From contig CM097883.1 of NCBI GenBank assembly GCA_044892505.1, forward strand, positions 349,680,001 through 349,744,000: a stretch of 64,000 nucleotides of DNA. Direction: 5' to 3'. The position numbers were made by a program, and so were the translations under genes. Positions 5,326 to 40,813 of the stretch are shown here, in pieces (within the stretch, counting starts at the first letter, position 1; each line of letters begins with the position of its first letter). The DNA comes from Schmidtea nova. Taxonomy: Eukaryota. Under the pieces are notes generated by a model, which did not search any database, had not been told where the DNA came from, and saw only the letters and a list, made by a program, of their open reading frames with translations.

Positions 5326-5668
5326 CACACTGTACCGGAAGGGCCATCTAAACTTTAAAAAACGACCCCTAAATGGATTGCGTTTTTTAATAGTACTATA
5401 GGCACAGATGTTGAAACAGTATATCTACAAAATCCTGATTGAGCTATTTAGGAGCAATTGACGAAAATCTGTAAAATGAGATTGAAGCAAAACTATTTAA
5501 ACCGTACGCAGATTTTTTTCACATGAAAACATGAGAACAATGACATGAGCCATCCATGTAATATGTACACTTTATTGTTGACTTATCAGATGCACAGTTC
5601 GTTAAACACAACGGGGTATAGATGGAGATGGACTGGAAGGTAATTATAATGTAATGGCATCATAGCAG

Positions 5669-7180
5669 TTACAAGTGTCGAGAATTGTAGCGAATAATAC
5701 AGTCCAAAAGGTGCTTATCGAAATGGACATGATTTTCACTAACTTTGCCAGCTGATATCCACATGGCTTTAAAATCTGTATGTACTGCCTCCGATGCTTG
5801 TTCATTGAAATGGCCGAGGCTGGAGTTCTTTAGTTTACAAAAATGAATCAAGTGAACACAAACAATGTGTACTGCTGTTGTTATTGCTATGCCCGTATTC
5901 ATATAAGCTGTCTCAAATTTTTTTATAGACTCTTCAAAACCAGCATGTAGCACCTGACCAAAACAGTCGCTAATAACACTGTTAAATGCTGCAAAGGATG
6001 TTGCAAACTTAATGATTTCAGATTTCTTACCAGTGGTGTGGAGAGTAGGTGCATGATGTAGAAGTCGACGACACATGTTACCTGTAAACTCGCCGCCATG
6101 AAGCTGAGGTTGTACGAGACCAATTTGTTGGAGCCACAGTTCAGCTACTTTAGGAAATGATGACTGCAGTTGATGAAACATTTTGTTTGTAACGCGCAGC
6201 ATTAAGTGGAGCTGCAGCGGAGGAATAATTTCAATCAGCATTTGTTTATCCTCGCCTTGAATCATAGGAGTGTGCACGCAGCTTTTGAAATCTTTAGCAG
6301 ATGCTTTAGGGTTGTATACTCTTCTCTTGTTCTCATAATCCCGAGCTTGCTTTTTGATTTCACCTATCGCTCTTAGTTTCCAATTGTTGTTGATTTTCTT
6401 GATATTTGAAAATTCTTTCTTTGGACATTCGCAAAACATACAAGGATACGCACTGGAATGTGATTGCAGTCCACATAATATGTTTGCTATTTTCAGATCC
6501 ACCGCGTTAACATACTGAAAGTCTATTTGATCAATTTTTAAGAGTTGTAGAATGTAACGAACATTCTCATATGTTTCTTTAACCTTATAGGCTATTGCGA
6601 TGATAATGAGCTTCTTCACGCTTGTATCGAGCATGGCTTTTTCAATAAGTTTCTTTGACGGATTAGTGATGGGTTTTTCGGTGGATTCAGCATTGCTAAT
6701 GTTTAGACAGAATTTAAAAAAATCTTCACCTGTATCAATTCCAATCTTGATGGAAACATTTTCTTTATCCAAATTTCTCTTCTCACACACTAGGTCTATC
6801 AGTCCGACAACATCATTACAGTAAACAACTGTACAGGATGCAGTCGCATCAACTCCTTTGTTGGTAGAGGTGCATTCAAAATCGTGGCTAAGGCAATCAA
6901 AATATTCAGCACATGTTTTGTTACGTCGTTGAAGTTGTTCTCCAATGAATGATTCTACCGAAGTTCGGCCAAACATGCTTCTAACAAAGGGTATAATTTT
7001 ACGTTTCATATCATTATTAGGCGCTGACAATAAATTTTGAAGTTTCGTTACACCATCTACACTAACTTGCACAATGGACAGACTTTCTTTAGAGCCAACT
7101 TGAACTTGCAGAGGGTATGAACCACCAGAATAAAACTCCTTGGTTGACACTTTGTATCTTTCAGTCGATCGTTTTATCAT
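5669..7180 (-). CDS. Chapaev transposase catalytic core (503 aa)
   Basis: Long ORF inside the TIRs with KIGIDTG, AVDLKIANILCGLQSHSSAYPCMFC, LQLHLML and LGHFNEQASEAVH motifs. Confidence 0.8.
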   Translation of the reverse strand: MIKRSTERYKVSTKEFYSGGSYPLQVQVGSKESLSIVQVSVDGVTKLQNLLSAPNNDMKRKIIPFVRSMFGRTSVESFIGEQLQRRNKTCAEYFDCLSHDFECTSTNKGVDATASCTVVYCNDVVGLIDLVCEKRNLDKENVSIKIGIDTGEDFFKFCLNISNAESTEKPITNPSKKLIEKAMLDTSVKKLIIIAIAYKVKETYENVRYILQLLKIDQIDFQYVNAVDLKIANILCGLQSHSSAYPCMFCECPKKEFSNIKKINNNWKLRAIGEIKKQARDYENKRRVYNPKASAKDFKSCVHTPMIQGEDKQMLIEIIPPLQLHLMLRVTNKMFHQLQSSFPKVAELWLQQIGLVQPQLHGGEFTGNMCRRLLHHAPTLHTTGKKSEIIKFATSFAAFNSVISDCFGQVLHAGFEESIKKFETAYMNTGIAITTAVHIVCVHLIHFCKLKNSSLGHFNEQASEAVHTDFKAMWISAGKVSENHVHFDKHLLDCIIRYNSRHL

Positions 7181-7230
7181 TGAAGTTGCGTTCTTCTATC
7201 TGTAGATACACACAATTCTACAATGTTCTT

Positions 7231-7722
7231 TCATAAAGCCTGTACCGTACACTTATGAGGAATGCCCCTCCCATAACGAGTCCGACATGCACTGCACACC
7301 GTCATGATTTTTTCCGGTGGGCCACAGGCTGTACTTTCGTCTTTTCGTGGGCGACCCTTCTTTGCCTTTGACATTGACTTCCCAGATTGCCTTGCTGTTT
7401 CGCAAATTTGACACTCGCAAACTGGAATCGGGTCTGATCTAGTTGTTGTAGTATATGGCGCTATCACACGGAAATCAAAAGGTGTCGGTAATACGCTGGT
7501 AGACTTCTTTCCGTCAATAATGTCTAGCAAATTAGAGCGACACCTGCTGCACATTCCACATGGTAAATTTTGTTTTGTCATCTCGTAAGTTGGCATAAAG
7601 TAACGACGAATTCTTGCTAACACGACATCTGTGATATTACAGTTTGATTGGTTGAAGCAAATAAGGCATACTTTCTTCCTGTTTTCTTCATGATTCAATG
7701 CACGGGTTTCATGAAATGGCAT
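7231..7722 (-). CDS. Chapaev transposase N-terminal exon (Chapa zinc finger, AT-hook)
   Basis: HEENRKKVCLICF...LPCGMCSRCR...CECQIC Cys/His pattern and KKGRPRK. Preceded by an acceptor-like TTTTCAG on the minus strand. Confidence 0.75.
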   Translation of the reverse strand: MPFHETRALNHEENRKKVCLICFNQSNCNITDVVLARIRRYFMPTYEMTKQNLPCGMCSRCRSNLLDIIDGKKSTSVLPTPFDFRVIAPYTTTTRSDPIPVCECQICETARQSGKSMSKAKKGRPRKDESTACGPPEKIMTVCSACRTRYGRGIPHKCTVQAL

Positions 7723-8015
7723 CTGAAAAGAAAATTTTAGCGTTACATTTTTAGAATACTAAACATGAATATCATATTTGAAAAAAAAACATTGCACTAA
7801 TAAAGTAACTTTTACAAAATACCTACTTAAAAATGAAATAAAATATGACACTCAATCTTACCACCGTATTTTTGTAATAATGACTTGTAGATCACACCAC
7901 CGCGCAAACTTGAACTTTAAAACAAACGAATAGTTTACTACTTAATACCAAATAATATTATTATATTCTGACATTGAAACATATTAAATGTGTCGCCGTC
8001 TAAAACTACAGAAAA

Positions 8016-8203
8016 NNNNNNNNNNNNNNNNNNNNNNNNNNNNNNNNNNNNNNNNNNNNNNNNNNNNNNNNNNNNNNNNNNNNNNNNNNNNNNNNNNNNN
8101 NNNNNNNNNNNNNNNNNNNNNNNNNNNNNNNNNNNNNNNNNNNNNNNNNNNNNNNNNNNNNNNNNNNNNNNNNNNNNNNNNNNNNNNNNNNNNNNNNNNN
8201 NNN
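8016..8203. other. Assembly gap (N run)
   Basis: Run of N bases. Confidence 1.
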
Positions 8204-8401
8204 ATTAACTTAAAACTATAACGTTCTATGCTTTACTCCTAAATAGCTCAATCAGGATTTTGTAGATATACTGTTTCAACATCTGTGCCTATAGTACTAT
8301 TAAAAAACGCAATCCATTTAGGGGTCGTTTTTTTAAAGTTTAGATGGCCCTTCCGGTACAGTGTGCTCCCCTATCGTTTGATTCAGTCGCAATTGGGTAT
8401 A

Positions 8402-13926: not shown

Positions 13927-15067
13927 TGTTGAGGTTCCAAATATTTGCTATTTGCAATCTCAACTTGTTATTGGGGTGATTCTTATATAAATATCAAAAG
14001 CAAAGTTTGTTTTTCAAAATTTTATTAATACAATAAAATTACTTTTTATTTCGTTTACAATTGTCTACGAATAACTCAAATTCTTTATTACACAAATTTA
14101 AAAAGAAAAAGTCGTATCAAATCAATTCTTGCAATTGAACCTATTGGGTGACTGTTATGTAGTGCGTGCTATATTTAATTGTGGATCCAATGTTTCTGAT
14201 CCGGGTTTTAATAAGTTTTTCAAGATTGCCTTGAAAACTCAATTTGCGCTAATTTTAAATCTTGATTTTACACTAGATTTTAAAGCTAGGATTTTTTTGG
14301 GCCCCTTTACTGATTTTTTCTTTAGTTTATATAGTAAAATTTGGTATGGATAAATAATTTAATTTCCGGTCTGATATTAAAATATTATTAAATTTAGTTT
14401 TCAATTTATTCTATACTCTGCGATTAAAATAATTATATTTCAATTTCCGTTCTTGTCGTGATATTAAAATTTTCAATTTATTCTATACTCTGCGATATAA
14501 TTATATTTTAATTTCCGGTCTTGTCACGATATCAAAATTTCCAAATTATTTCGTATTCTGTGATATTAAAATATTATTTAGATTTGATTATTTTTAAACA
14601 ACTGAATTAAATTATTTTATTTATTGATCTGTTTGTTTTATATGTATATACAACTCATAAAATAATAAAAGGAATAAAATACACATCAAGATACACATCA
14701 AGATAAAAGGAATAAAATACACATCAAGATACACATCAAGATAAAAGGAATAAAATACACATCAAGATATATTAAAAGAAAACAAATGTTTGTTGAGAAA
14801 TGTCACAATAATAAAATGTCACAATCATATTAATTTTCTTGATTTCTGTGATGGGAGTTGCAATCTTTGTTGAGAAATGTCACAATAATAAAATGTCACA
14901 ATCATATTAATTTTCTTGATGGGAGTTGCAATCTTTGTTGTGTGGCTTGGATTGGGATTCTGTGTATTGGGATTCCGCGTAAATGTTGATCCTATAGCTG
15001 TTAGGCCCTGTCCTATAATATTTATTTAGGACAAATGCTTGGATGGGCTTCCCTCGATCATCCAACA
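13927..15067 (-). repeat. 3' LTR of element D
   Basis: TGTTGAGG...CATCCAACA; identical to 26731-27871 wherever spot-checked. Confidence 0.95.
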
Positions 15068-16877
15068 TTCCTCCCAGGGCCGTCAAGGTAATGTCCTCAT
15101 TACCTTTTTCACTCAGGACCATTTCAATTTCTTTATCCTTTAATTTCATTATTGTTCTCTTGAATCCTTTCTTGATTGCCAGATTTAGGGTATCATCTTC
15201 CTCAATTCGTCTTCCGAAATGGGTACATAATTGTTTTTCCGTTATCTCTTTTTGGTCGGCACTTATAATGAAGCTAGGTTCTTCCTCCTCTTCTATTTCC
15301 ATTTCAATGTCTGGTTCTGGTCCTAATTCGTCTTCTGCTTTTATTTTACTCTCCATTTCTTTTGTGAAGTCTTCTTCGTCGTCTTCCTCAACTGAAAAAT
15401 ACTCTTCGTCCGAATCTAAATCGCATATGTCTTCTCTTTCTTTGTATTTTTGTATTAGTTGCGGTTCGTTTTTGATCATTATTTGATTTTCTGGTGGTCC
15501 TTCTTCTTTTGTAATCATTAGGTCGTCATCACCATCTTCATGTATTGTTTCTTCCATATCTGAATTTTCATCCATTATTATACTTTCTTCTTCGCTTTCC
15601 TTCAACTCTTCCATACATGATTTTCTGTTTTGCATCTGGTATAGGTCTCCTTTCATTTCGATATCGTCTGTTATTGGTGTATCACTTTGTAACGATGTTG
15701 AATCTGCTGAATTCCATTTTATTATAGGTTCCCATTTGTCTTCTACTATTCCATATATTACCTTTAATATTGTTGTTGTCTTTCTGGCAGAAAATGGCTC
15801 ACTTTCTACTAATGCTTCATTCAGTCTCTTATCTTTGTACCATCTCTTATGGTATTTAATCACTTGGTAAGCTAAGTTAGATAGCTTAATTTTGAGTGGA
15901 TCCACGTTTTTCACGAATGAGCACATAAATTTATCTCCGGCCATTTCTCTCATTCCTGCAATGTTGTCTAGACCAAATGTTAGCATTTTTAATTTATCTA
16001 TCATATCAAATCCTATGATTATTTTTCCCCACAACAGCTCTCTAATATCCCATAGCGCCTGGTACTCATCTTCATTTCCGACGATACTTTCTTTATTAAC
16101 CATTGTTTTTTCTGTGCAGAAGTTTTTTATTTTCGTTCTTGGGGTTATCTTTTTGTTGTATATAATTTCACCGTTGTATTTTCTTATACATACTTCTACT
16201 GGTCGCTTGTTGTCATTTTTATCAATTGCAAATTTTGCATCCATGAATATAATTAGTTGGTGTCTCTCTTCTGTGGATAATTCATTGTGTGTGAAAGAGA
16301 TTTTTTCATTTATCCAGCTTTGATCGTACCAAGGTTTTGAAGGGATTGGCGGCATTGATTGGAATGGATTTGATATCAGAGGGATATAGAGTATCTCGAT
16401 TCCTATGACACACGGTAAGTTGTTCATTTGGATTATGAGGTGATTAAAATCGTCTGGCATACTTCTGTTGTTTGTAATTGTTTTGATGATGATTGAACAA
16501 TTACTTGTTGTGATTATTGGTACTTTATGTTGGCAAATTGATACCTCGGTTTTTGTCATGTGGAATAGGATTCTATGTGGTACCTTTTTTCCTTCGATTA
16601 CCGCTTTGTCGACATTAAGATGTTTTTCAAATGTGCCGATTAGGTCTTTTAATTTTGTTCGTCGAGCTTCATTAAATTTGATAATGTGTAGTTCTCTTTC
16701 TTCAATTTCCACTTTCATATCATTTGGGATGCATACTTGGTTTGGGAAGCTTCTGATTGTGATTGGATTTCCATCGGTACATATTTTGTTTTGTAGGGTT
16801 TTGTAAAAGTTTAGAGGGTGTTTGTTGATCATAGCCACATAGTTCATAGATCGAGAATAATTTGGCTCTGATTGCAT
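14907..16877 (-). CDS. Accessory ORF (~656 aa from MQSEPNY): DEDDh/REX4-ISG20-like exonuclease fold and acidic tail, ending inside the 3' LTR
   Basis: IIFMDAKFA...PVEVCIRKYNGEIIYNKKITP...NFCTEKTMV...RELLWGKIIIGFD follows the REX4/ISG20 pattern. The last ~53 codons lie in the LTR. Confidence 0.72.
   Translation of the reverse strand: MQSEPNYSRSMNYVAMINKHPLNFYKTLQNKICTDGNPITIRSFPNQVCIPNDMKVEIEERELHIIKFNEARRTKLKDLIGTFEKHLNVDKAVIEGKKVPHRILFHMTKTEVSICQHKVPIITTSNCSIIIKTITNNRSMPDDFNHLIIQMNNLPCVIGIEILYIPLISNPFQSMPPIPSKPWYDQSWINEKISFTHNELSTEERHQLIIFMDAKFAIDKNDNKRPVEVCIRKYNGEIIYNKKITPRTKIKNFCTEKTMVNKESIVGNEDEYQALWDIRELLWGKIIIGFDMIDKLKMLTFGLDNIAGMREMAGDKFMCSFVKNVDPLKIKLSNLAYQVIKYHKRWYKDKRLNEALVESEPFSARKTTTILKVIYGIVEDKWEPIIKWNSADSTSLQSDTPITDDIEMKGDLYQMQNRKSCMEELKESEEESIIMDENSDMEETIHEDGDDDLMITKEEGPPENQIMIKNEPQLIQKYKEREDICDLDSDEEYFSVEEDDEEDFTKEMESKIKAEDELGPEPDIEMEIEEEEEPSFIISADQKEITEKQLCTHFGRRIEEDDTLNLAIKKGFKRTIMKLKDKEIEMVLSEKGNEDITLTALGGMLDDRGKPIQAFVLNKYYRTGPNSYRINIYAESQYTESQSKPHNKDCNSHQEN
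15068..15080 (-). promoter_or_regulatory. Putative polypurine tract
   Basis: ...CTGGGAGGAA directly abuts the 3' LTR on the minus strand. Confidence 0.55.
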
Positions 16878-17301
16878 TGTTAATTGAAGATACAAGAATC
16901 GGGATATTGATTGACAATAAAACACTAAGAATCGGGATATCGACTGATAAGTTAGTAAACGATAAAACACTAAGAATCGGGATATCGACTGATAAGTTAG
17001 TAAACGATAAAACACTAAGAATATAGATTGATAATGAGATCGAGATATGATTTTACGACTTGATTTGTGATTGGATTGAAAATTGGAACGATTTGATTGG
17101 GAGTTGGTTTGATTGTTTTGATTGTGCTGAGGATTTGATGTAAAACTGGCTTTATTGGATTGTTTGCCAAATGGGTGACTTGTTTTTCTAAAAATAAAAT
17201 GTAAATTTTTATGTTGAGAGCGTATTTCAGGTTTAACCTTATACGCTCTTTTATAGATACAGATATATGTGATTTTAATATATATTATTGACCAATTTAA
17301 C

Positions 17302-19302
17302 TTATACCAATGTAGACCTCGAATATTCACCTGGTATATATTTACCCAAATGGAAATGCCCTGGTACATTTCTGACCAGTTGGCTCCGATACCGCTGCCT
17401 TTTCCATTTGTACTTTTTATAAACTTGTACGCTAGTTATTAAAGCTAAAACTGCTAATGCTATTATTGATGTTGTGATGACATAAAAAGGCCAATGTGGA
17501 TTTTTATCTTTTTTACGAAATGCTTGTAGTTCCTCTAAGTTATGTATCACTATTGGTCTTCCTTGCCTTATTTTGATAGGTTCTTGTTTTTGTTTTTTGG
17601 CATTGTATTGTTTTTGGAGTTTGGCTATTCCAGTTCTTGTTGGTGTTTCGTTTGTATGTAGTGTGGTATTTAGTCTATTATTTGATGTCGTTGTTGTGCT
17701 TTTTGTTATGTTTTGGTTTTTTATTATATCCTTGGGTAATTGTTCTGTTTTTATCTCTTTGCATCTCCATGTTGTTGTATCTGTGTTTCTCTGTATGCAG
17801 ATTTTATATATTGTATTAGGTGTTAGTTTTGTGAAATTAATATAGTTTCCTCTTTCAATTTCGTTGGTTGTTCTGTCGTCCTTTCCTTTTATCATCTTTG
17901 GGTTTTTTCCATTCGTTGTTTGCATGTATAAATCAATTACTCCTCTATTTATGATAAATGCTCTAACTTCGTTTGTTGATATTTTTATTAATACTCTGTC
18001 AAATTCTATTGTTTCGGTTGAGCCAACAATTGTTATGATTGTTAAGAAGATAGCTGATATTATTAGTTTGTTATGAGATCTTAGATTATACTTGTGAGGT
18101 TTATCTATCGTGACCTCGGCTTCCGCCAACTTGCATCTGTTGACATGTACTACTATTGGATCCTCGTTTTTATGCTTTTGTAAATGTAAATTCTCATTTA
18201 TTACTTTTACTACTTCATATGGACCTTTATATGGTCTTGCTAATTTTGTTGTCTTTCCCTTTCCTACTTGTGGTGACATAAGTCTAACCTTATCACCTAC
18301 CTTAAAGTTGTGTGGTTTACTATTTTTGTCGTAGTCGGCTTTGTATTGTTCTTGTCTATATTTGACTTTTAGATTGGCTACTTTATACACTTCTTGCAGT
18401 TTTTCCTGCATTAGTGTGACATAATCTGGTGCATCCAAATATTGTGATACTCGAGGTTCAAATATTGTATCTATTGGTGTTGCTGGTTCTCTTAAAAACA
18501 TTAAATAATACGGCGAATACCCTGTTGTTTCGTTTGGAGTGATATTATGAATGTATGTGCATTGACTTATGTATTCGTCCCAATCATTTTGATTTTTTCC
18601 TACAAAAACAGCTAGTCTGCTTAGTAATGTCCCATTAAATCTTTTTACTAGTCCATCAGTTTGAGGGTGATACGCTGTTGTGTTGATCTTTTGCATGTTA
18701 AAAATATTAGCTACTCGTTTTATTAATTCACTAGTAAAATTTGTTCCTTTATCTGTTAATAATCTTTTGGGTGTGCCTATCTTGAAAATAATTTTTTCTA
18801 TAAGCAATTTAGCAACTGTTTCTGCTGTTTCGTCTTTTGTTGGAAATGCTTCTGCCCATCTAGTAAAATAATCACTAAATACTAGTATATGTTTATTCCC
18901 ATTAATTGTAGTAGGTAATTTACATAGAAAATCCATTGCACATAGTTCCATTGGTGATGTTGTTGCTGGAATGGGGTGTAACGGCGCTTTTGTTTTTGTA
19001 CCTGTATTTTTTCTTGTTGCACATATTGTACACGCGTTACACCATCTCTTAACATCTTTCTTTAGTTCTTCCCAGTAATATTTTTGTAATAATCTACTTG
19101 CTGTCTTTCTAGATGATAAGTGACCTCCTAATGCTCCATCGTGATATTGTAGTAGGAGTATTTGTCTTAATTTCTGAGGTACTACTATTAATTGCTTACC
19201 GTTGAAATCTTCTATTACTACTAATTTCTTTGATATTTTATATTTTGAATTGTTTTCTTTTCTGATTTCATTCCTTATTCTATTGATCTCTGGGTCTTTC
19301 AT
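17302..19302 (-). CDS. Integrase (HHCC, DD-K, GPY) fused to a predicted type I membrane protein
   Basis: HDGALGGH...CNAC; MDF; TDKG; GLVKRFN; KGPY. Then hydrophobic LIISAIFLTIITIVG, FN3-like LTPNTIYKICI, a Thr-rich stalk, and TM FYVITTSIIALAVLALITSV with a basic tail. Confidence 0.9.
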   Translation of the reverse strand: MKDPEINRIRNEIRKENNSKYKISKKLVVIEDFNGKQLIVVPQKLRQILLLQYHDGALGGHLSSRKTASRLLQKYYWEELKKDVKRWCNACTICATRKNTGTKTKAPLHPIPATTSPMELCAMDFLCKLPTTINGNKHILVFSDYFTRWAEAFPTKDETAETVAKLLIEKIIFKIGTPKRLLTDKGTNFTSELIKRVANIFNMQKINTTAYHPQTDGLVKRFNGTLLSRLAVFVGKNQNDWDEYISQCTYIHNITPNETTGYSPYYLMFLREPATPIDTIFEPRVSQYLDAPDYVTLMQEKLQEVYKVANLKVKYRQEQYKADYDKNSKPHNFKVGDKVRLMSPQVGKGKTTKLARPYKGPYEVVKVINENLHLQKHKNEDPIVVHVNRCKLAEAEVTIDKPHKYNLRSHNKLIISAIFLTIITIVGSTETIEFDRVLIKISTNEVRAFIINRGVIDLYMQTTNGKNPKMIKGKDDRTTNEIERGNYINFTKLTPNTIYKICIQRNTDTTTWRCKEIKTEQLPKDIIKNQNITKSTTTTSNNRLNTTLHTNETPTRTGIAKLQKQYNAKKQKQEPIKIRQGRPIVIHNLEELQAFRKKDKNPHWPFYVITTSIIALAVLALITSVQVYKKYKWKRQRYRSQLVRNVPGHFHLGKYIPGEYSRSTLV

Positions 19303-19362
19303 CTGTTCCTCATATATATCTATTGGCTTTTCTGCTACTAGTGCAAATATTTCAAGTGCTCC

Positions 19363-22300
19363 TTATTCTGGTATTCTTGATAGTGCATCTGCGTTTTTAT
19401 TTATTCTACCTTGTTTATATATAATTTTTAGGTGCATGTCTTGTATTTTCATTGCCCATTTAAGTAATCTACTTGATGTATCTTTATGTTTCCATAAGCC
19501 TTCTAATGGTTTATGGTCTGTTCTTATTATCACTTCAGTTCCGTAGATGTATGGTTTGAATTGTTTTAGGGCAAATACTATTGCGTAACATTCTTTTTCT
19601 ATTGTTGAATACCTCAGCTGTGCTCCTTTTAATGTTTTACTGGCATATGCTATTACGTAATCTTTCCCTTTCTCTTCTTCTTGGCCTAATACTGCTCCTA
19701 CGGCTTTCCCGCTGGCATCCGTCATTACTATAAATTGGTTTTCGAAATTTGGGTATCTTAACACTGGTGCTGTTATCAATCTTTCTTTTAGTTTGTCGAA
19801 TGCTTCTTGATGTTCTTTTGTCCATTTCTTTTGTATCTTGTTAACTTTATTGTTAATTTCTTGTACTATTAACACGTCTTTGCATTCTCCTTTTGTTTTA
19901 ATTCCCTTTGTTAGTTCTATTATAGGTGTTGCTATCTTTGCATAATCTTGTATGAATTTACGATAGTATCCTGTTAAGCCTAAAAACCCTTGTACTTGTT
20001 GTACTGTTTTTGGTATTGGGAATTTCTTTACAACTTCTATTTTTTCTGGATTTGGTTTTATCCCTTCTACTGTGACTATATGCCCTAAAAATAGTGCCGA
20101 AGACTCTGCCCATTTACATTTGGTTGGTTTAATTTTTATCCTTGCTTTTCTTAGTCTCTCAAGTACGTTTGTTATATCTTTTAGATGTTCCTCGAATGTC
20201 TTTGATGATATTAATATGTCATCCATGTAAACTGCGCAATGTTGTACATTTACTAATATTGTGTTCATTAGACGTTGAAATGTAGCTGGCGCATTAGTTA
20301 ATCCGAAGGGTAATCGTGTGTACTCATATAAACCATGCTCAATAACAAATGCTGTTTTTTCTGCATCCCCTTCTTCCATTTGAATTTGCATATACCCCTT
20401 ATTCGCATCAATGACTGAAAAATACTTAGCATCCCTAAGTTTATCATATTGCTCTTGTGCTTTTGGGAATGGATATGAATCTTTTACTGTTACATCATTT
20501 AATTTACGATAGTCAATGCACATTCTTATTTCTCCGTCTTTCTTTTTGACGGGTACAATGGGTGATGCCCACTGTGAAAAACTTTGTTTTATTACACCTG
20601 CGTCTTTTAATTCTTTAATTTGTCGCTTTATCTCCTCTCTTAGTTTGTATGGTACGCTATATGGTCTTTGTTTTATTGGTCTTGCATTGCCCGTATCTAT
20701 TACATGTTTGATTATGTCAGTATCTCCTAAATCAAATTCATGTTTTGCAAAAACATCGCTGTATTCATCTATTAGTGTCTGTAATTGTGCTTGTTGTGTT
20801 ATTGTTAGGTATTTATTATTGATTTTCACTTTGTCGTATGATTTTATACTATTTGTCTTACTAGGTTCGACTACTCCATTGCCGTTATTATTCATCACGC
20901 TTATCTCACTGACTTCGTATGTTTTTTCTAATTCACCTTTGAATAATTTTCCCAATTTCGTACCTTTGTGTATTTTAACATTACTTTTTTCATAATTTGC
21001 TATTCTCAATGGTATTATTCCCTTTCTCGGAATTACGCATTCATTGGTTAGCATTATATTCTGATTTTGTATAATTGCCGTTTCTGGCTCAAAAATAAAA
21101 GTGTCCTCACTTTTGATGTTAACTTTTAAGGGAATTATATGATCGCATTCATATTCCAATTCAAATGCTTCTAATACAACAACTTCTGTGAACTTGGATT
21201 TATGTTTAATTGCTTTTCTCTTTATCGTATTATCTGTTAAATCTATAATGCAATTTTCTAACTTGTTGAGTATATCGATTCCCAATATACATATGCTATT
21301 ACATTCTTGCACCACTTTAAATATGTGGTTTATTACCTGTTCTGGTGTTTCGACTATTAGTTCTATGTCTCCCTTTAGTGGAATACGATGTGCTGATAAC
21401 GATACTACTTTATCCGTTGTGCTCATAATATTTCTTTTTTGATCATCTGTCAGTTGATCTTCTCTAATTAAGGATGTTGCTGCTCCTGTGTCTACTAATG
21501 CATTTATGATTATATTGTTTATAATTATTCTAAGTCTTGGTCTTGCTTCGTTTGCTGCATCTAATCGTTCCATTGTTTCGACTTCTAAGCTATAACAACC
21601 ATATATCTTTTTAGGTTCACAATGACAATTCTTGTTTTCTCTAGGAATTTTGATTTCTATATTTTCTTGTAGCTCTTTTAGTTGTTCTCGTTGGTTTTCA
21701 TATAGTCCTTGTTGTGGTACATTTCCTTCATGTGATATATGCGCTTTAATTATTTCCTCATCGTTTTCATCATCTACCAGTAATTGCCTTTCTTCATTCC
21801 TTTGGACTTTTATTAAACGTATTTCCTTGTCGTGTTTCGCCGTAATAAGATATTTAGCTATAAATGGGCACAAACATGCTAATAATTTATATGAATTTCC
21901 AAATACTTGTTTTAGCTGTCTCAGTGATACTAGAGAAGAACATATCATTTTTAGTAATGCAACCGTATAATATAAACCTAAGATTGTAGAAAACATGTTT
22001 CCAAGGACTGCAAAGTATCCCCATATGCTATATAGTACTTTATATGCTACTTTTTTGAAGTATTCTTTTGATAATAACACATCAAAGTTGTAATTTCCTC
22101 CGTAACTTCCTTCGATAACTCTGTTAACCATTATTGAAAGTACTCTTTCTTTTTCGTTTGGAAATAGCATGTGTTTTCTTGCACTTTCTATAGCTTCTCT
22201 CGTATATATGCCATTACTGTCCATATCGTTGATTTCTTTAAACTCTAATCTTTTTTCTAGCTCTATGAGTTCTAATTTGAGTGGTTTCATTGCCTCCTTT

Positions 22301-23283
22301 CTATCTGACATAGATATCCACATTTCGTCATTTATTTTGTATAATGGGTCTAATAGGTTAGTGCATTTTTCTATTTTTCTCGGTATATATGTTTTTTCTG
22401 TTAATATTCTAGTAATTGGTTGAAGGTATACCCTTTCTCCTTTATATATTACCGGTAATTCATTAGTGCACTGATTATTTGTTGCTAACGATACACTAAC
22501 AGGTTTACATTGAAATGTCTGTATCACTTCTCCTACTATCCTTGCAAATGTTCCTTCTTCTGAGAAGATAATTGGTGCCATTAAATCTGGGTTTGTTACC
22601 GCCACTGCCATTTTTGTCTTCAATATTTCTCTGTTGAGTTTGCAATCGCTCATAATTGTTGATTGATATACTTTATCTAATTGTACTAGTTGGTTATGAT
22701 AGAAAAAATCGATTTTATTGTTGAAGTATGATGCAAGTTTGACGTCGAATTTATTTACTTTTTGTTTTGCATCTTTGACTTCTTCTTTGCTTATGTATAT
22801 CCCTTCATAATTAGTTTGTATTATTTCCTTACCACATTTTACACTTTTCCTTTTACTAACAAACCTCATTGCTTCGTTTTCAGATTCTGACATATATATT
22901 GTTGGTGTATCTTTTTCTTGTACAATTGTTGTTTTCCTTTTTTGATCTCTCACCCTTTTTGAGTCTACTTCTGTGAACTGTTTTCCTTTGATTTCCCTAA
23001 ATTTTAATGATTTTAATTTTGTTAACTGACAATCATATTTATCTATTTTGTATATTAGCATTGATTCTCCTGTATCGCAATAAGATTCTTCTAATGTACA
23101 AAATTTGTATATCATCATTTTCTTTGAGCTGCTGTCGAATGATGCTTTGAACTTTCTCAGTTCTACCATGTAGTGTCTCCTTACTACAACATTACTCAGT
23201 TTTTCGCCCCATATTGTATATTCTCCTCCTTCACAATATCCTCCTTTTGATGCCCATCCCACGACATTTACATCTTGTCTCAT
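19363..23283 (-). CDS. pol: Chuvirus-like glycoprotein ectodomain and TM fused in frame to protease, RT and RNase H
   Basis: GYCEGGEY...VVVRRHY; GEVIQTFQCKPV...CTNELPV...YLQPITRIL; TM at ~21870-22040; LVDTGA (PR); SPIVPVKKKDG..RMCIDYRKLN and YMDD (RT); TDAS/EKEC/TDH/DALSR (RH). Confidence 0.92.
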   Translation of the reverse strand: MRQDVNVVGWASKGGYCEGGEYTIWGEKLSNVVVRRHYMVELRKFKASFDSSSKKMMIYKFCTLEESYCDTGESMLIYKIDKYDCQLTKLKSLKFREIKGKQFTEVDSKRVRDQKRKTTIVQEKDTPTIYMSESENEAMRFVSKRKSVKCGKEIIQTNYEGIYISKEEVKDAKQKVNKFDVKLASYFNNKIDFFYHNQLVQLDKVYQSTIMSDCKLNREILKTKMAVAVTNPDLMAPIIFSEEGTFARIVGEVIQTFQCKPVSVSLATNNQCTNELPVIYKGERVYLQPITRILTEKTYIPRKIEKCTNLLDPLYKINDEMWISMSDRKEAMKPLKLELIELEKRLEFKEINDMDSNGIYTREAIESARKHMLFPNEKERVLSIMVNRVIEGSYGGNYNFDVLLSKEYFKKVAYKVLYSIWGYFAVLGNMFSTILGLYYTVALLKMICSSLVSLRQLKQVFGNSYKLLACLCPFIAKYLITAKHDKEIRLIKVQRNEERQLLVDDENDEEIIKAHISHEGNVPQQGLYENQREQLKELQENIEIKIPRENKNCHCEPKKIYGCYSLEVETMERLDAANEARPRLRIIINNIIINALVDTGAATSLIREDQLTDDQKRNIMSTTDKVVSLSAHRIPLKGDIELIVETPEQVINHIFKVVQECNSICILGIDILNKLENCIIDLTDNTIKRKAIKHKSKFTEVVVLEAFELEYECDHIIPLKVNIKSEDTFIFEPETAIIQNQNIMLTNECVIPRKGIIPLRIANYEKSNVKIHKGTKLGKLFKGELEKTYEVSEISVMNNNGNGVVEPSKTNSIKSYDKVKINNKYLTITQQAQLQTLIDEYSDVFAKHEFDLGDTDIIKHVIDTGNARPIKQRPYSVPYKLREEIKRQIKELKDAGVIKQSFSQWASPIVPVKKKDGEIRMCIDYRKLNDVTVKDSYPFPKAQEQYDKLRDAKYFSVIDANKGYMQIQMEEGDAEKTAFVIEHGLYEYTRLPFGLTNAPATFQRLMNTILVNVQHCAVYMDDILISSKTFEEHLKDITNVLERLRKARIKIKPTKCKWAESSALFLGHIVTVEGIKPNPEKIEVVKKFPIPKTVQQVQGFLGLTGYYRKFIQDYAKIATPIIELTKGIKTKGECKDVLIVQEINNKVNKIQKKWTKEHQEAFDKLKERLITAPVLRYPNFENQFIVMTDASGKAVGAVLGQEEEKGKDYVIAYASKTLKGAQLRYSTIEKECYAIVFALKQFKPYIYGTEVIIRTDHKPLEGLWKHKDTSSRLLKWAMKIQDMHLKIIYKQGRINKNADALSRIPE

Positions 23284-23406
23284 TTTTGCCCCTATCCTTG
23301 CTTCTAATTCTATTCCTTTATGACCGCTATATTTTACTTTTTTTGTTTTAAATGCATCTTCACACTATTGGTGACAATATTACTGCTTCGGGTGTCCACG
23401 TAGGTT

Positions 23407-26064
23407 TTAACACTGTTCTTGCCCCAACATGACATATATATATGCTTCCTCCTGATACTTTACTATGCACTCTTTGGCCTCTGTATGAATAAAGTCTGAT
23501 TCTTGATAAACATGGAATATTTGAGGCTCTGACATGATTAATTTAGTTGGATTTGCTTCAGGGCAATTTTCAACATCTAACAGTGAGTATTTTTGTCCCC
23601 ACTTTGGATTTTGACAATCATATGCTACCATTGCATTGCCTCCCTTGATTAAATCTAATAACAAAGTGATAATGACTATTACTATGGAGGTTATCGATTT
23701 ACTCTCTGTCTTTGGTTTTACTGTTGCTTTCTTTATTAATTGTTTTATTACCTCATCTGTATCACTCTCTTTATTCGTCGTATCTTTATCATATAATACT
23801 TTCCATCCTCCTTTCTTTTTTATCCATGGTATTGCCTCTACTTTCAATCTTTTAAACATCATTGTTGCTACTTTTTCTAATTGCTCTTTTGGATTTTCCT
23901 TTATGAGCTTTTTATATCTTGCGGCCAAGTATGCCATGGCCGTTATTATTTTATCTTTATCTATCCCTGTATTAAACATGATTTTTAACACTGTTTTTTC
24001 ATTTGCTTCCTCTGTAACTAGTTCTTTAGTATCCTTTTTAATTAACATCATCCTTTCAGTTATATTTTCAATAAGTACTGTTGGCTTTGTTTCTGGAAAT
24101 AGCTTAATATTCATTGCTTTTATTACTTCTTTTATTTTGTTTACGTCATTATTATCGTCTTGATACTCTGGTTGTTCATGTTTATGTTGATTTGCAATCT
24201 CTCTTAATCGTTCTGCTGTCTTCCTATTCTCCGATTTTTCTATTATTTCTGATTTTCGAGGTCTTCCTCTACCTCGTTTTGATGTTTCTGCATCTTTTGT
24301 TTTTGCTTCCTCAGCTATTCTTTCTATTGTTTCTTGTAAGTTACTATACTTTTCATCTATAGGTTTAAATATAATTTCTTCATCCATTACTGATTTCTTT
24401 GTTTCGCTAGGTGATTTATCCCATAGCCTAAATAATCTATCAAAATCGTTTTCTTCATTTATACTCAACTCAACCGACGGTACTGGCGTCATTATTTCAT
24501 TGATCATTTGTTTTTCTACTGTGGCTACCACAATATTATCACTTACTGGGTTTATCCCATAATCGATTAAGTACTCGTCACTTAATAATTCTATTCCGTT
24601 AAAATATAATTTTATTACATCTTTCTCTCCTATGGTTCCTGGCCATTTGGCTCTTACCATTCGTTTTAATTTGCTCACTTTAGTGCAAGTATGCATCTTT
24701 TGTTTAATACTAAAAAAATAATTATCATTTGATTCAATCGTTACATTTAGTGTTTCATGCAATTTTTCATTTTTTCTTATATATTCTCCATAACATTTCA
24801 ACATCTCTTTTATTTCTATTTCTAATTCAAATACTCTCGTTACATTTTGTCTCTTTACCATCATTGGTATTAAATTTCTAAGTCTCTCTAAATCAATCCC
24901 ATTAACCTGTATTTTATTGATTACTCTTAATGTTTCATTGTCATCAAACGGTTGCTTATGCAATACCTCTTTAAATTCCTCTATTAATTCTTTTTGTCTA
25001 TTTTCTTCTGTAAGAAATATTTCATCTGCTTTTCTAATTTCCTTTAACTCATCATTATCAATATCTACTTCATTTGTAAAGGTGCTAAATTCATTTATAG
25101 ACATTTCAAGTTTTCTCTCAATAAGTCTTCCATATTGAGTTTTAAATTCTTTTAGTTCCTCTCTTAATATATTTATTTCTTTATTTGCTGATTCGAGCTC
25201 AGCACTATTTACTTGTTTTATCTCAGGCTCATTTTTAAATCTTACTCTTATTGGTGAATCTGCTCGTGGTTTATTACATACCTTTGCTAGGTGGCCATAC
25301 TTTTGGCAATTATAACATTTTATTTGTCCATTAAAATTCACTTTATCTCTACCATCATTATTATAAGTATTTCGCCTCACTGGGCTATCTTGCCTATTTC
25401 TCGAATTATCTCTATATCTATTATCTCTTCTATTATATTCGAAGCGACTATCTCTATTATTTTTATTATATCCACTGTAACTGTTTCTGTTATAACCAGA
25501 ACGACTATCTCTAAAATTATCGAAATTTTTATTTCCTGGACTATTAAACCTTCCCCTGTTTTCAGGTGATTGGCTTCTATTAGGACTAAATTTTCTTCTA
25601 TTATTAACAAAATTCAAGTATAATTGTTTCATTTCTTCCCAGGGAATACTATCATCCTTATTTCTCAACTCAGGTTTTACCTCGGGTTGTTTTTCAACTT
25701 CTACAGCATCTACCTCTGGTTTAAATCTATCTCTTTGTATTGCTTCGATACGTTTTGCCTTTTGAACTAACTCATTTAAGTCTTCATACTCAATTGTAAT
25801 TAATGCTTTGTATAAATATTTTTGGATGCCGTTCCAAAACTGATCCTCAATAAATTTACTAGTGTGATCTCCGGCACCAAATGCCTTTTTTGCTAATTCT
25901 GTTATCGTGTATATATATTCACCTACTGATTCTCTGGCTCCTTGGTATCTACTTCTAAATTTTTGAACATTTATTTTTTGTAAGTCTCGATCTATTACTA
26001 TTTCTTTTCTAAGGTTTGTAACCAACTCTTGATAATTAATACCGGCATCAATCTCCGGCACCAA
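23407..26064 (-). CDS. gag: Gag continuation with CCHC knuckle, ubiquitin-like domain, AT-hook, Bcl-2-like domain, signal peptide and glycoprotein N-terminus
   Basis: CYNCQKYGHLAKVC; KVSKLKRMV...KLYFNGIELLSDEYLIDYGI; KRGRGRPRK; IMFNTGIDKDKIITAM...WIKKKGGW; hydrophobic ITSIVIVIITLLLDL followed by AYDC...SLLDVENC. Confidence 0.85.
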   Translation of the reverse strand: MVPEIDAGINYQELVTNLRKEIVIDRDLQKINVQKFRSRYQGARESVGEYIYTITELAKKAFGAGDHTSKFIEDQFWNGIQKYLYKALITIEYEDLNELVQKAKRIEAIQRDRFKPEVDAVEVEKQPEVKPELRNKDDSIPWEEMKQLYLNFVNNRRKFSPNRSQSPENRGRFNSPGNKNFDNFRDSRSGYNRNSYSGYNKNNRDSRFEYNRRDNRYRDNSRNRQDSPVRRNTYNNDGRDKVNFNGQIKCYNCQKYGHLAKVCNKPRADSPIRVRFKNEPEIKQVNSAELESANKEINILREELKEFKTQYGRLIERKLEMSINEFSTFTNEVDIDNDELKEIRKADEIFLTEENRQKELIEEFKEVLHKQPFDDNETLRVINKIQVNGIDLERLRNLIPMMVKRQNVTRVFELEIEIKEMLKCYGEYIRKNEKLHETLNVTIESNDNYFFSIKQKMHTCTKVSKLKRMVRAKWPGTIGEKDVIKLYFNGIELLSDEYLIDYGINPVSDNIVVATVEKQMINEIMTPVPSVELSINEENDFDRLFRLWDKSPSETKKSVMDEEIIFKPIDEKYSNLQETIERIAEEAKTKDAETSKRGRGRPRKSEIIEKSENRKTAERLREIANQHKHEQPEYQDDNNDVNKIKEVIKAMNIKLFPETKPTVLIENITERMMLIKKDTKELVTEEANEKTVLKIMFNTGIDKDKIITAMAYLAARYKKLIKENPKEQLEKVATMMFKRLKVEAIPWIKKKGGWKVLYDKDTTNKESDTDEVIKQLIKKATVKPKTESKSITSIVIVIITLLLDLIKGGNAMVAYDCQNPKWGQKYSLLDVENCPEANPTKLIMSEPQIFHVYQESDFIHTEAKECIVKYQEEAYIYVMLGQEQC

Positions 26065-26512
26065 ATGCCTTTTTTGCTAATTCTGTTATCGTGTATATAT
26101 ATTCACCTACTGATTCTCTGGCTCCTTGGTATCTACTTCTAAATTTTTGAACATTTATTTTTTGTAAGTCTCGATCTATTACTATTTCTTTTCTAAGGTT
26201 TGTAACCAACTCTTGATAATTAATACCTTTACATGCTAAATTATTGTATGCCTGTAATGCGTATCCCTTTAAGTATAATGGGATTCGTTGTTTTAATTCA
26301 TTTGTTTTCCATCCGCAAGCCTCTGCATACTGTGTGATTTCGGCAAAAAGGTCGTCGAACTTTTCAGGGTCTCCCTTATATGATTCTATTGGTAATGTTT
26401 TTATAAAATTATGGCTTCTTATGTTGTCTGTATTACTGTTACTTCCACTATTGCTGCTGCCTGTACTATTATTACTCATTTTGTATATTATCTTTTTTCT
26501 CAACTTGTGCAA
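26048..26512 (-). CDS. gag: Gag N-terminus, truncated by an internal tandem duplication
   Basis: IESYKGDPEKF...AEACGW...IPLYLKGYALQAY resembles a retrotransposon gag core. First ORF after the PBS. Confidence 0.8.
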   Translation of the reverse strand: MHKLRKKIIYKMSNNSTGSSNSGSNSNTDNIRSHNFIKTLPIESYKGDPEKFDDLFAEITQYAEACGWKTNELKQRIPLYLKGYALQAYNNLACKGINYQELVTNLRKEIVIDRDLQKINVQKFRSRYQGARESVGEYIYTITELAKKAFGAGD

Positions 26513-26710
26513 TATTTCAGGTGGCTTATCTATAATGACTTTCTTTATCTTTTTACCTATTTTGTTATTGTTAACCTTAAATGTTTGTATATCTTTGAAT
26601 TTCTGTTTTGGTCAATAATATTTAGATAAATATATTTTCCCGATATATATATTACAATATCCCTCTGATCGCAATTCCTATCCCCCAATTGATATTATAA
26701 TATTTTATGG

Positions 26711-26728
26711 TCCCGGTTCGCGGCACCA
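26711..26728 (-). promoter_or_regulatory. Primer-binding site (tRNA-Phe-like 3' end; tRNA-His not excluded)
   Basis: TGGTGCCGCGAACCGGGA lies 2 nt inside the 5' LTR. Its complement UCCCGGUUCGCGGCACCA resembles the metazoan tRNA-Phe 3' end. Confidence 0.8.
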
Positions 26729-26730
26729 AA

Positions 26731-27871
26731 TGTTGAGGTTCCAAATATTTGCTATTTGCAATCTCAACTTGTTATTGGGGTGATTCTTATATAAATATCA
26801 AAAGCAAAGTTTGTTTTTCAAAATTTTATTAATACAATAAAATTACTTTTTATTTCGTTTACAATTGTCTACGAATAACTCAAATTCTTTATTACACAAA
26901 TTTAAAAAGAAAAAGTCGTATCAAATCAATTCTTGCAATTGAACCTATTGGGTGACTGTTATGTAGTGCGTGCTATATTTAATTGTGGATCCAATGTTTC
27001 TGATCCGGGTTTTAATAAGTTTTTCAAGATTGCCTTGAAAACTCAATTTGCGCTAATTTTAAATCTTGATTTTACACTAGATTTTAAAGCTAGGATTTTT
27101 TTGGGCCCCTTTACTGATTTTTTCTTTAGTTTATATAGTAAAATTTGGTATGGATAAATAATTTAATTTCCGGTCTGATATTAAAATATTATTAAATTTA
27201 GTTTTCAATTTATTCTATACTCTGCGATTAAAATAATTATATTTCAATTTCCGTTCTTGTCGTGATATTAAAATTTTCAATTTATTCTATACTCTGCGAT
27301 ATAATTATATTTTAATTTCCGGTCTTGTCACGATATCAAAATTTCCAAATTATTTCGTATTCTGTGATATTAAAATATTATTTAGATTTGATTATTTTTA
27401 AACAACTGAATTAAATTATTTTATTTATTGATCTGTTTGTTTTATATGTATATACAACTCATAAAATAATAAAAGGAATAAAATACACATCAAGATACAC
27501 ATCAAGATAAAAGGAATAAAATACACATCAAGATACACATCAAGATAAAAGGAATAAAATACACATCAAGATATATTAAAAGAAAACAAATGTTTGTTGA
27601 GAAATGTCACAATAATAAAATGTCACAATCATATTAATTTTCTTGATTTCTGTGATGGGAGTTGCAATCTTTGTTGAGAAATGTCACAATAATAAAATGT
27701 CACAATCATATTAATTTTCTTGATGGGAGTTGCAATCTTTGTTGTGTGGCTTGGATTGGGATTCTGTGTATTGGGATTCCGCGTAAATGTTGATCCTATA
27801 GCTGTTAGGCCCTGTCCTATAATATTTATTTAGGACAAATGCTTGGATGGGCTTCCCTCGATCATCCAACA
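26731..27871 (-). repeat. 5' LTR of element D
   Basis: Direct repeat of 13927-15067, adjacent to the PBS. Confidence 0.95.
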
Positions 27872-39647: not shown

Positions 39648-40707
39648 TTAAATCAGGGTTTCATTTAGTTCGTGGAAACCTTCGTATTGCGGTTCCACCT
39701 GATTTATGGGGAGTGTCATCCATATCACCGTACTCCTCCACATTCCAACTTCCTCTCGGTATGTGTGGGATATCTGGATTTCTTCAACTAGTAAGTATTC
39801 CAGATAGTTTGCCTGCTCTGTCAGGGTTTCTATTTGTTTTTCTAATTCTGTTAATTTTTTCTCTTTCTCTTCCTTCTCCATCATTTCTGTTACTGCTGCT
39901 GTAATGCTTGTTTCTTTTGTTGGTATTGGTTTTTCTGTCAGCTTCTTTCTCAGTTCTTCGTTTTCTTTTGTCAAGTTTGTTATGTTTTCTTCATAACTCT
40001 GTTTCGTCTCTTCAGTCTTTCTTTGGTTCTTTTTAATTCTATTTTCTTCTGGGTAATCACTCCTTGATACCCATTTATATCTCTTTTCATGTTTTCCTCC
40101 TTGTGATTCCACATTCCGGTAAGCATATTTTTTAGTTGTTCTTGGTTAGCTAAGTCTTCTCCCATTCTTTGCACTTGATAAGTTAGTTCTTTAATTTTCT
40201 TTGCCTGTTCCCGGATAAATTGTTGTCTCTTTTTATTCCATTTTTTATTTGACTTCTCTTGACTGATTTTCTGTCCCAACTCCTCTTTTAGTTCGTCAAT
40301 TTCTTTATATAATTTCCAGTCATCACTGTATGCTGTTCTTTCTATTATCTCCCTTGCTTCCTTGTAAGATTCTTTCGCCTCTTTCTTCCAGTATCTTGCC
40401 TGTTCTGTGATTGAATGAATCTTATGATCTTTTTTATCTGCTGTCTATCTCTCTCTTCTCGTCGCTCTTTCATCATTCCTCTGTAGTATTCATTCTGATG
40501 TTTTAACGTTTTGTAAACCTCTTCTATTTTTTCTCGACTTCTTTGATTTGCTTTCTCCGCTTCTCTTAGTAATTCGGCTTGTCTCTCAAATTCTTCCTGT
40601 TTCCGATAATATGCGTTGATCCATATTTCGATTTGCTCCATGTAATTACTGATCGCCTCATCTTGGTGTATGGTGATTTCCTGTAGATATACCTCTATAT
40701 TTCCCAT
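39648..40707 (-). pseudogene. Frameshifted long coiled-coil protein gene (three consecutive, partly overlapping ORFs)
   Basis: ORFs 40345-40707, 39980-40279 and 39648-40112 are all E/K/Q-rich heptad-like and lie in different frames. Confidence 0.55.
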
Positions 40708-40813
40708 TTCTATAATTACAGATAAATTTTAATCATTTTATTTTTTATTATTTTTGTTTATTTGTTATTTTATATTGTTTCTGTACATTTTATTTACATG
40801 ATCACTCCTCTTG

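Follow-up and report, generated by a model that had tools for sequence, protein, structure and literature searches.

The long terminal repeat (LTR) retrotransposon analyzed here, from Schmidtea nova, encodes a class III envelope (Env) fusogen and, fused in frame behind its integrase, what sequence and structure prediction support as a second type I membrane protein with a fibronectin type III (FN3) fold. The element is 13.9 kb long and lies at 13927-27871 on the minus strand of a 64,000-nucleotide stretch of contig CM097883.1 (assembly GCA_044892505.1, positions 349,680,001 to 349,744,000; hereafter the window), which contains the whole of it. The module is in frame with the integrase on the minus strand, within an open reading frame (ORF) of 686 amino acids (17302-19362), and has the following parts, in window coordinates.

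18217-18225, minus strand: GPY motif of the integrase
18076-18093, minus strand: basic KYNLRS stretch, the linker from integrase to signal
18019-18066, minus strand: signal-like hydrophobic run LIISAIFLTIITIVGS, with a predicted signal-peptidase site after V-G-S
17746-18018, minus strand: predicted FN3 domain, 91 amino acids, beta-rich, containing LTPNTIYKICI and one N-glycosylation sequon
17581-17745, minus strand: length-variable stalk rich in Thr, Asn and Lys (11 Thr and 7 Asn in 55 residues), with three sequons
17494-17580, minus strand: juxtamembrane segment with a conserved I-x-N-x-E-E-x-Q
17422-17493, minus strand: predicted transmembrane (TM) helix, beginning W-P-x-Y
17383-17421, minus strand: basic cytoplasmic motif YKKYKWKRQRYRS, pattern Y-x-K-Y-K-W-K-R-Q-R-Y-R-S
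17302-17316, minus strand: C-terminal S-T-L-V and stop codon (17302-17304), an ending of class I PDZ-binding type

A first-pass annotation made from the letters alone had described a hydrophobic signal-like run behind GPY, a beta-rich segment of about 90 residues with an FN3-like LTPNTIYKICI, a Thr/Asn-rich stalk, a TM helix and a basic KKYKWKRQRYR stretch, and all of these are present in frame at the positions above; it did not mention the C-terminus of PDZ type or the next ORF's overlap in the +1 frame (see below). Only two 19-residue hydrophobic peaks occur in the 686-residue ORF, at the signal run and at the TM helix. The signal is assigned from hydropathy and the (-3,-1) small-residue rule, which holds in nine of nine lineages inspected, and the segment is conserved among copies; neither a missing signal nor an unconserved segment, the two outcomes named in advance as fatal to the description, was thus observed. 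In a natural unbroken copy of 3059 amino acids the hydrophobic segments number exactly four and alternate as signal, Env TM, signal and TM. In the window family no Met occurs between GPY and the second signal, so the FN3 protein most likely derives from the polyprotein.

The fold of the beta domain was predicted with AlphaFold2 from a 13-sequence alignment, giving a seven-strand sandwich (pLDDT 69.6, pTM 0.62, with residues 47-57 below 50). Foldseek, proposed in the first-pass annotation as a check on the ectodomain, put FN3 domains of NCAM2, contactin and sDscam at the top in the PDB (best NCAM2 FN3, E=7.2e-4, TM score 0.57), and nearly all rows were FN3; FN3-type phage and giant-virus proteins were matched in a viral structure library. 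VIA-align placed sDscam FNIII1 at Z 8.6 (rmsd 2.9, 79 residues aligned), tied with IFNAR, Sevenless and NCAM2. These structural matches share 8-18% identity and tie among many host FN3 domains, and the beta domain is predicted to be a divergent FN3 member by fold alone, with no specific donor. A Cys pair in the last two FN3 strands is conserved across families. The longer ectodomain of related elements contains an internal repeat of about 88 amino acids (HHalign 83.7%, E=8e-6) with FN3-like E-F signatures, and occurs in a three-repeat version.

Several observations weigh against the FN3 assignment or against a common origin of the ectodomains. The model is of moderate quality, with the C' region below pLDDT 50; the VIA-align Z of 8.6 is barely above background; and the Pfam fn3 score is 13.4 bits (E=0.093), under the gathering cut-off of 25. 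Profile comparison of the one-FN3 and three-repeat ectodomains is nonsignificant (probability 0.5%) and leaves their homology unsupported, and the structure model of the longer family 2 ectodomain reaches a pLDDT of 32.9. ESM Atlas pointers to FN3 at 0.88 and 0.89 (the latter for the longer ectodomain) fall under 0.9 and serve as leads only. The 257-residue module matched no protein homologs of 141-450 or 451-2000 amino acids, and PDB sequence searches with FN3 profiles returned one unrelated match (E=0.51) and otherwise none. A representative-library match confined to the Thr-rich stalk was dismissed as compositional. The host source gene that the first-pass annotation had looked to was accordingly not found in the protein-homolog, representative-library and PDB sequence searches.

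The module is present in many copies and in several element families. We found at least 158 matches in the same genome (148 of 838 candidates scored), in identity classes of approximately 96-100, 88-93 and 75-77%. A further family at about 41% (up to 44%) identity accounts for 150 genomic matches, including another family that is 58-60% identical to it, and a sister family with a frame of 3393-3401 amino acids and a longer post-integrase ectodomain has 111. This multicopy presence in its own genome and in several families argues that the module is not a chance feature. It is found in each of the three Env-bearing family groups inspected in this genome. The 120 integrase-bearing homologs listed include two from other samples, P0004 and P0006, that have a signal, a beta-rich ectodomain of about 330 residues, a TM segment and an S-T-L-V end; P0003 and P0087 have a signal and a truncated ectodomain; and P0005, P0007 and P0008 lack the module. 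In an integrase tree of 24 rows (L021, L080 and P0087 left out), the deepest split of one clade (support 100/99) has carriers on either side, and the three noncarriers form a weakly supported sub-branch. The simplest reading of this tree is that the module is ancestral and was then lost, with two independent gains as a possible alternative. The sub-clade without the module indicates that it is inessential for the clade. Metagenome and viral contig scans gave no relative with the tail alignment and one short integrase-only contig with P0004, and own-genome searches with P0087 and P0006 recovered already known families only. We also note that P0087, which has ankyrin repeats after the integrase, finishes with a truncated beta-rich segment behind a signal-like run, a hint that a membrane module of this kind is shared by ankyrin-bearing Burro-like elements, and that P0007 and P0008, of the same clade, have retropepsin-like domains after the integrase in place of the membrane module.

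The pattern of selection across the module is uneven. Between family 1 and family E, identity is 86% in integrase, 82% in reverse transcriptase (RT), 71% in the Env ectodomain, 30% in signal plus FN3, 42% in the TM helix and 76% in the cytoplasmic tail, making the ectodomain the least conserved part of the polyprotein between families. For subfamilies A and C, omega (the ratio of nonsynonymous to synonymous rates) is 0.03 in integrase, 0.06 in linker plus signal, 0.37 in the beta domain (range 0.15-0.78 over the 11 pairs computed), 0.79 in the stalk, 0.43 in the TM helix and 0.25 in the tail. In the same pair the proportion of nonsynonymous differences (pN) is below that of synonymous differences (pS) in linker plus signal (P=0.00014), FN3 (P=0.009) and tail (P=0.004), and does not differ significantly in the stalk (0.41), juxtamembrane segment (0.08) or TM helix (0.12). 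The nonsynonymous rate of FN3 is 0.099 versus 0.009 for integrase (P=3e-9), approximately tenfold faster, with FN3 still under purifying selection and the stalk near neutral.

The most constrained part of the module's end is cytoplasmic. KYKWKRQRYRS is nearly invariant across families and its third-position changes are synonymous; the idea that this basic motif is a mere by-product of the overlapping frame was ruled out, as its changes are of the synonymous kind when read in frame 0 (pN/pS 0.06-0.34) but not when read in +1. An S/T-x-V/C ending is present at 66 of 67 loci (at least two of which are duplicate places), family 2 ends in E-T-F-V, and only 5 of 118 other integrase-bearing homologs, used as a control, have this type of ending. 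Class I PDZ ligands end in S/T-x-hydrophobic, a pattern that the conserved tail fits as a putative ligand; against this, families E and F end in Cys, a less usual PDZ terminus. With the ectodomain at 30% and the tail at 76%, selection points to the tail and to no fixed receptor-binding face, and the concentration of conservation in the cytoplasmic tail favors a role run from the inner side, such as scaffold docking or cargo attachment. It is possible that a host-facing domain would evolve this fast, leaving room for receptor-binding or decoy functions, though the lasting constraint is on the inner side.

The element surrounding the module is organized as follows.

26731-27871, minus strand: 5' LTR, 1141 bp, TG...CA, with 0 mismatches to the 3' LTR
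adjoining the 5' LTR, minus strand: primer-binding site, starting TGG
23407-26076, minus strand: Gag part with a CCHC knuckle, Bcl-2-like domain, internal signal run and the start of Env
23803-24000, minus strand: Bcl-2-like domain (Pfam E=6.9e-6)
19363-23364, minus strand: remainder of a gB-type (class III) Env with its TM segment, protease, RT and RNase H (PF24664, E=1.3e-75; RVP; RVT_1; RT_RNaseH)
18094-19362, minus strand: integrase with H2C2, core and GPY (PF17921, PF00665, PF22938)
13927-15067, minus strand: 3' LTR, preceded by a purine-rich run resembling a polypurine tract

The two 1141-bp LTRs are identical, with TG...CA ends, indicating that this copy is young, and the element is flanked by a 4-bp target-site duplication. 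The Pfam order is CCHC knuckle, Bcl-2-like domain, class III (Monjiviricetes/gB-type) fusion glycoprotein, protease, RT, RNase H and integrase; the Bcl-2-like score is below the curated cut-off in the window copy and above it in some other copies. The window copy is itself broken, by a frame disruption near 23364-23434 and a premature stop at 19363-19365, and has a 177-bp tandem duplication at 25867-26227. Many unbroken genomic copies carry the whole domain series in a single frame of 3043-3082 amino acids. LTRs, target-site duplication, primer-binding site, polypurine-like tract and the protease-RT-RNase H-integrase order with GPY are those of a Ty3/Gypsy (Metaviridae-like) element, and the in-frame class III Env between Gag and protease, present in the 3059-residue natural copy, is that of the Gag-Env-Pol gB type; no Pfam chromodomain match follows GPY in the 686-residue integrase ORF, and the element is thus not classed as a chromovirus. 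From its sequence we identify it as a Burro-like Gag-Env-Pol Gypsy element. In the window (23570-24000, minus strand) and at locus L049 the hydrophobic run of the internal Env signal lies shortly downstream of the Bcl-2-like domain, and the usual position of a Bcl-2 tail anchor may double as the Env signal peptide. By eye, a ubiquitin/SUMO-like stretch without a Pfam match is seen between Gag and the Bcl-2-like domain (24700-24900, minus strand), as in Burro.

Downstream, the polyprotein overlaps a second ORF, with these features.

14907-17435, minus strand: ORF2, stop to stop, in the +1 frame relative to the polyprotein and overlapping its last 134 nt
about 15747-16253, minus strand: ISG20-like DEDDh domain of ORF2, with degenerate catalytic motifs; an acidic region and a C-terminal domain are also in ORF2
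17382-17388, minus strand: candidate +1 frameshift heptamer CGG-AGY-N, following CAG CGK TAT
17188-17199, minus strand: T-rich AG splice-acceptor-like site, 107 nt past the stop, at a matching place in sister families

The ORF2 domain family matches ISG20L2 (E=2.6e-8). Catalysis by DEDDh exonucleases depends on D-x-E, D and H...D residues. In the window family ORF2 has D-x-K and no His motif, and so lacks the makings of an active DEDDh exonuclease; D-x-E and H-x-A-x-E-D are intact in family 2, and families 1, E and F are degenerate.

We consider it somewhat probable, from the sequence pattern, that a +1 frameshift at CGG-AGY produces a long fusion of FN3, TM segment and pseudonuclease. The overlap is 134 nt in family 1 and 101 nt in families E and F. 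In intact representatives the +1 frame is free of stops over the 420 nt past the polyprotein stop, where the other frames have 5-13 (shuffle P<=1e-4), and it is open at 51 of 66 loci, the remainder being copies with lesions; families E and F have no conserved AUG in the first 210 nt, yet 0 stops versus 6-9. Directly past the motif, the common Leu, Val and Ile codons from which +1 stops would arise are avoided (P 0.004-0.25 per lineage, the lineages not being independent). A +1 stop lies 4-5 codons upstream of the motif, which brackets the entry point of any shift to approximately 18 codons. TAT CGG AG is retained at 65 of 67 loci, and TATCGGAG in 99 of the 100 matches listed of 406 genomic matches. 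Both CGG codons among the 165 Arg codons of one natural polyprotein fall in the motif. A search of the genome with one pattern, which a divergent gene would escape, gave 0 matches for tRNA-Arg(CCG) versus 2591 of NCG type, with TCG in all 100 listed of the 2591. In having an overlapping ORF in +1 that begins to be open at a heptamer with a conserved rare codon, the element shows the arrangement of Ty3-type programmed frameshifting. As a separate observation, tRNA-Arg(TCG)-like units with a spacing of 264/330 bp form a large tandem array at G000:C1:272776507-272804978.

Other features argue against a frameshift, and it is possible, though in our judgment doubtful, that ORF2 is made as a free protein, from an RNA that is spliced or has an internal promoter, the open +1 frame being another entry route. 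Past the stop, pN/pS in the +1 linker is 0.67-1.34, with no constraint on its amino acids, and the candidate site is followed by no conserved RNA structure (z -2.05 to +1.99). ORF2 may be made without a shift, given the TTTTAG of splice-acceptor type and the TATA/CCAAT-like words downstream and, in family 1, an AUG at -68. The T-rich AG falls at +104 to +107 in family 1 and +199 to +203 in families E and F, and in some copies an AUG follows it after 4-15 nt; in family 2 the two frames do not overlap, and a separate ORF2 has its own acceptor and AUG. In families E and F (L059:6620-6720, L078, L080 and L081) four CCAAT words lie 10, 37, 64 and 100 nt past the polyprotein stop and a TATA-like word at 109 nt, possibly an internal promoter for ORF2. 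Such routes leave unexplained why the 210 nt before the E/F acceptor, where there is no conserved AUG, have 0 stops versus 6-9, why stops are avoided upstream of the family 1 AUG, and why CGG is invariant even though the common codon AGG would keep its third-frame Ile. Contigs of four runs from one study contained no usable splice joint at the polyprotein tail, and a bacterial promoter scan, a method inapplicable here, was at background. Both the frameshift and the splice/AUG routes may be used.

A plausible account of the whole system, whose chances we regard as even, is a polyprotein-derived FN3 membrane protein whose tail docks on PDZ scaffolds and which is fused by a +1 shift to ORF2. The ribosome would make Gag-Bcl2-signal-Env-TM-Pol-signal-FN3-TM-tail as one chain. 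The four hydrophobic segments of the natural unbroken copy suggest a topology in which Gag and the Bcl-2-like domain would be cytosolic, Env luminal behind signal 1 and held by its TM segment, protease, RT, RNase H and integrase cytosolic, FN3 luminal behind signal 2, and the tail beyond the last TM helix cytosolic; Pol would thus be a cytosolic loop tethered at both ends. Signal peptidase would free Env and the FN3 protein, and release of the second type I protein by this cleavage is, judging from the sequence, highly probable. The tail would then engage host PDZ scaffolds, which its conserved ending makes probable. The FN3 protein could mark or organize a membrane patch, at a cell junction or polarized surface, as the gathering place of Env, Pol and particles for passage from cell to cell, the fast-changing FN3 serving as an adhesion-like outer face; we see the arguments for and against such a role in spread as balanced. 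A fraction of ribosomes would shift +1 and append the pseudonuclease, delivering it to the membrane patch or particle. In its most specific form, which we put forward tentatively and with considerable doubt, each polyprotein would yield two surface proteins, one a class III fusogen encoded ahead of Pol and the other an FN3 adhesion protein directed to junctions and encoded behind the integrase, with a Ty3-like +1 shift at a tRNA-less CGG swapping the PDZ ligand for an ISG20-like pseudonuclease carried as anti-defense cargo.

The first-pass annotation had taken the module for a receptor-binding or immune-decoy surface protein complementing the fusogen. A second conserved type I protein accompanying a gB-type fusogen is borne out; the proposed role is not, given the generic FN3 ties, the lack of a host source gene in the searches made and a conservation concentrated in the tail and not in the ectodomain. 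Herpesvirus gB depends on separate attachment proteins, and an FN3 protein on particles that selects the target cell for the gB-type Env would be compatible with the PDZ-docking account. Its production 1:1 with Env from a single frame, its surface topology and its presence in all three Env-bearing groups would suit such a partner, as would a rate ten times that of integrase under continued purifying selection, expected of a host-facing binder, and Atlas virus provides a precedent for two glycoproteins after Pol (bioRxiv 10.64898/2026.03.22.711591). We nonetheless think it unlikely, since the ectodomain varies between a single domain and three repeats, its identity is 30% against 71% for Env, and the conservation lies on the cytoplasmic side. 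A captured receptor or adhesion fragment on the producing cell might instead compete for a ligand or for PDZ scaffolds, dampening defense or cell death alongside the Bcl-2-like domain and the pseudonuclease. The structural matches include FN3 domains of cytokine receptors and adhesion proteins, the element carries other domains of host-interference type, and Burro elements are noted for such cargo (PMC6431247); the ties at 8-18% identity single out no donor, no host source gene was found in the sequence searches above, and in-frame fusion compels coexpression with Env and Pol with no separate regulation, making this improbable.

Anchorage alone could also be the function, with signal 2 and the TM helix holding Pol (and, via the frameshift, ORF2) at the membrane because Env splits Gag from Pol, and FN3 acting as a generic foldable stub. 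The Gag-Env-Pol order does abolish the usual Gag-Pol fusion, the ectodomain is interchangeable in size and sequence, and the stalk is neutral. However, the Env TM segment already anchors Pol, FN3 is under purifying selection and retains its Cys pair, and the PDZ-type end is kept in family 2 despite the lack of overlap there; we hold such a pure tether to be quite improbable. That the module is a neutral passenger or a set of chance hydrophobic runs might be suspected from the window copy, which is broken upstream, but is contradicted by purifying selection and by a layout conserved across a deep clade and in other samples, and is barely credible.

The element type itself is known, as are post-Pol in-frame glycoproteins, from Atlas virus. 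Burro1-4/GYPSM1 are giant gypsy-like planarian elements of >30 kb and about 4900 amino acids (PMC6431247). The window element shares with Burro1-4 one long frame, Gag-CCHC, a Bcl-2-like domain, an in-frame Env between Bcl-2 and protease, the protease-RT-RNase H-integrase order and a downstream accessory ORF (PMC6431247). At 13.9 kb and about 3060 amino acids, and with no BIR, MATH/TRAF, ankyrin or dUTPase Pfam match in its ORFs, it resembles giant Burro but, by the size and cargo seen in its sequence, is not Burro1-4 sensu stricto; the portions of the Burro description consulted mention no post-integrase membrane protein and no frameshift (PMC6431247). Gag-Env-Pol errantiviruses of the HSV/gB type are described from Platyhelminthes, Nematoda and Bryozoa, with six Schmidtea elements of 14.5-18 kb listed among them (PMC13524379). 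These have a gB-type Env between Gag and Pol, multiple copies and intact LTRs, as here; they differ in that, in the consulted main text, only chromodomains are treated at the Pol C-terminus and 'fibronectin' occurs 0 times (PMC13524379). Some of those listed may be relatives with the module unannotated.

Atlas virus (Belpaoviridae) also has glycoproteins in frame behind integrase, two (Gn- and Gc-like) per polyprotein (bioRxiv 10.64898/2026.03.22.711591). It belongs to another family, has a class II fusogen, and places both glycoproteins after Pol from one phlebovirus-like cassette, whereas in the window element the fusogen and a host-like FN3 protein flank Pol. The candidate shift site resembles Ty3 GCG_AGU_U and EST3 CUU_AGU_U, in which a P-site codon without a cognate tRNA is followed by an AGY Ser codon and opens an overlapping +1 ORF, and CGG_(A) frameshift sites are reported from glass-sponge mitochondria (PMC12661321, PMC5009743). 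It differs in its CGG P-site, its animal host and its position at the end of Pol's membrane appendage, the Ty3 site lying between gag and pol. DEDD-family (DEDDy) nucleases are encoded by ORF3 after pol in Gypsy-like LTR elements of bdelloid rotifers, and inactive DEDD proteins are known in piRNA pathways (PMC5408684). ORF2 differs from rotifer ORF3 in being ISG20-like DEDDh, degenerate in families 1, E and F, intact in family 2 and possibly frameshift-fused to a membrane protein. Type I adhesion and receptor proteins with a single FN3 or FN3 repeats have a signal, FN3, stalk, TM segment and short PDZ-binding tail. Of these, FNDC5/irisin, sDscam and NCAM2 match the module's FN3 fold, and they differ in the 8-18% identity, which marks no specific donor, and in that the module is encoded inside a retroelement polyprotein. 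No description of a post-integrase FN3 membrane protein or of a CGG-AGY frameshift was found in the open-access literature searched.

Other features of the window and genome were noted in passing. Within the window are a fragmented TRAF-like gene in several frames (39648-42232, minus strand; RING, zinc fingers and a MATH-like segment by eye), a unit with 104-bp inverted ends (5354-8336) and, by eye, two hAT-like transposase remnants (56532-58063 and 61527-62747). Three element copies (L056:5663, L058:5520 and L061:6631) are interrupted by one foreign sequence, the junction translating to the same short peptide, with an A32-like ATPase motif and other ORFs; this insertion is Maverick/Polinton-like. 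A high-copy element at L063, L064, L097, L100 and L103 encodes ankyrin, TRAF (RING-zf-MATH) and BIR-RING proteins and two signal-plus-TM ORFs; one of its ORFs ends E-E-T-F-V, like the family 2 tail, and there is a resemblance between one of its membrane ORFs and an ORF of the Maverick-like insertion. No retroelement polyprotein lies upstream of this BIR-bearing element within 20-30 kb in four loci.

How envelope-bearing invertebrate retrotransposons choose their target cells and move between cells are open questions, and the Gag-Env-Pol order raises the further question of how Pol can be packaged when Env lies between it and Gag. In a tractable group of stem-cell-rich animals, a clade-wide second membrane protein with a conserved PDZ-type tail offers a testable answer, in which Pol would be membrane-tethered and spread would be junction-directed. 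If true, a Ty3-like +1 frameshift in an animal retroelement that exchanges the tail of a membrane protein for a pseudonuclease would be both a new recoding site and a new route for delivering an accessory protein.

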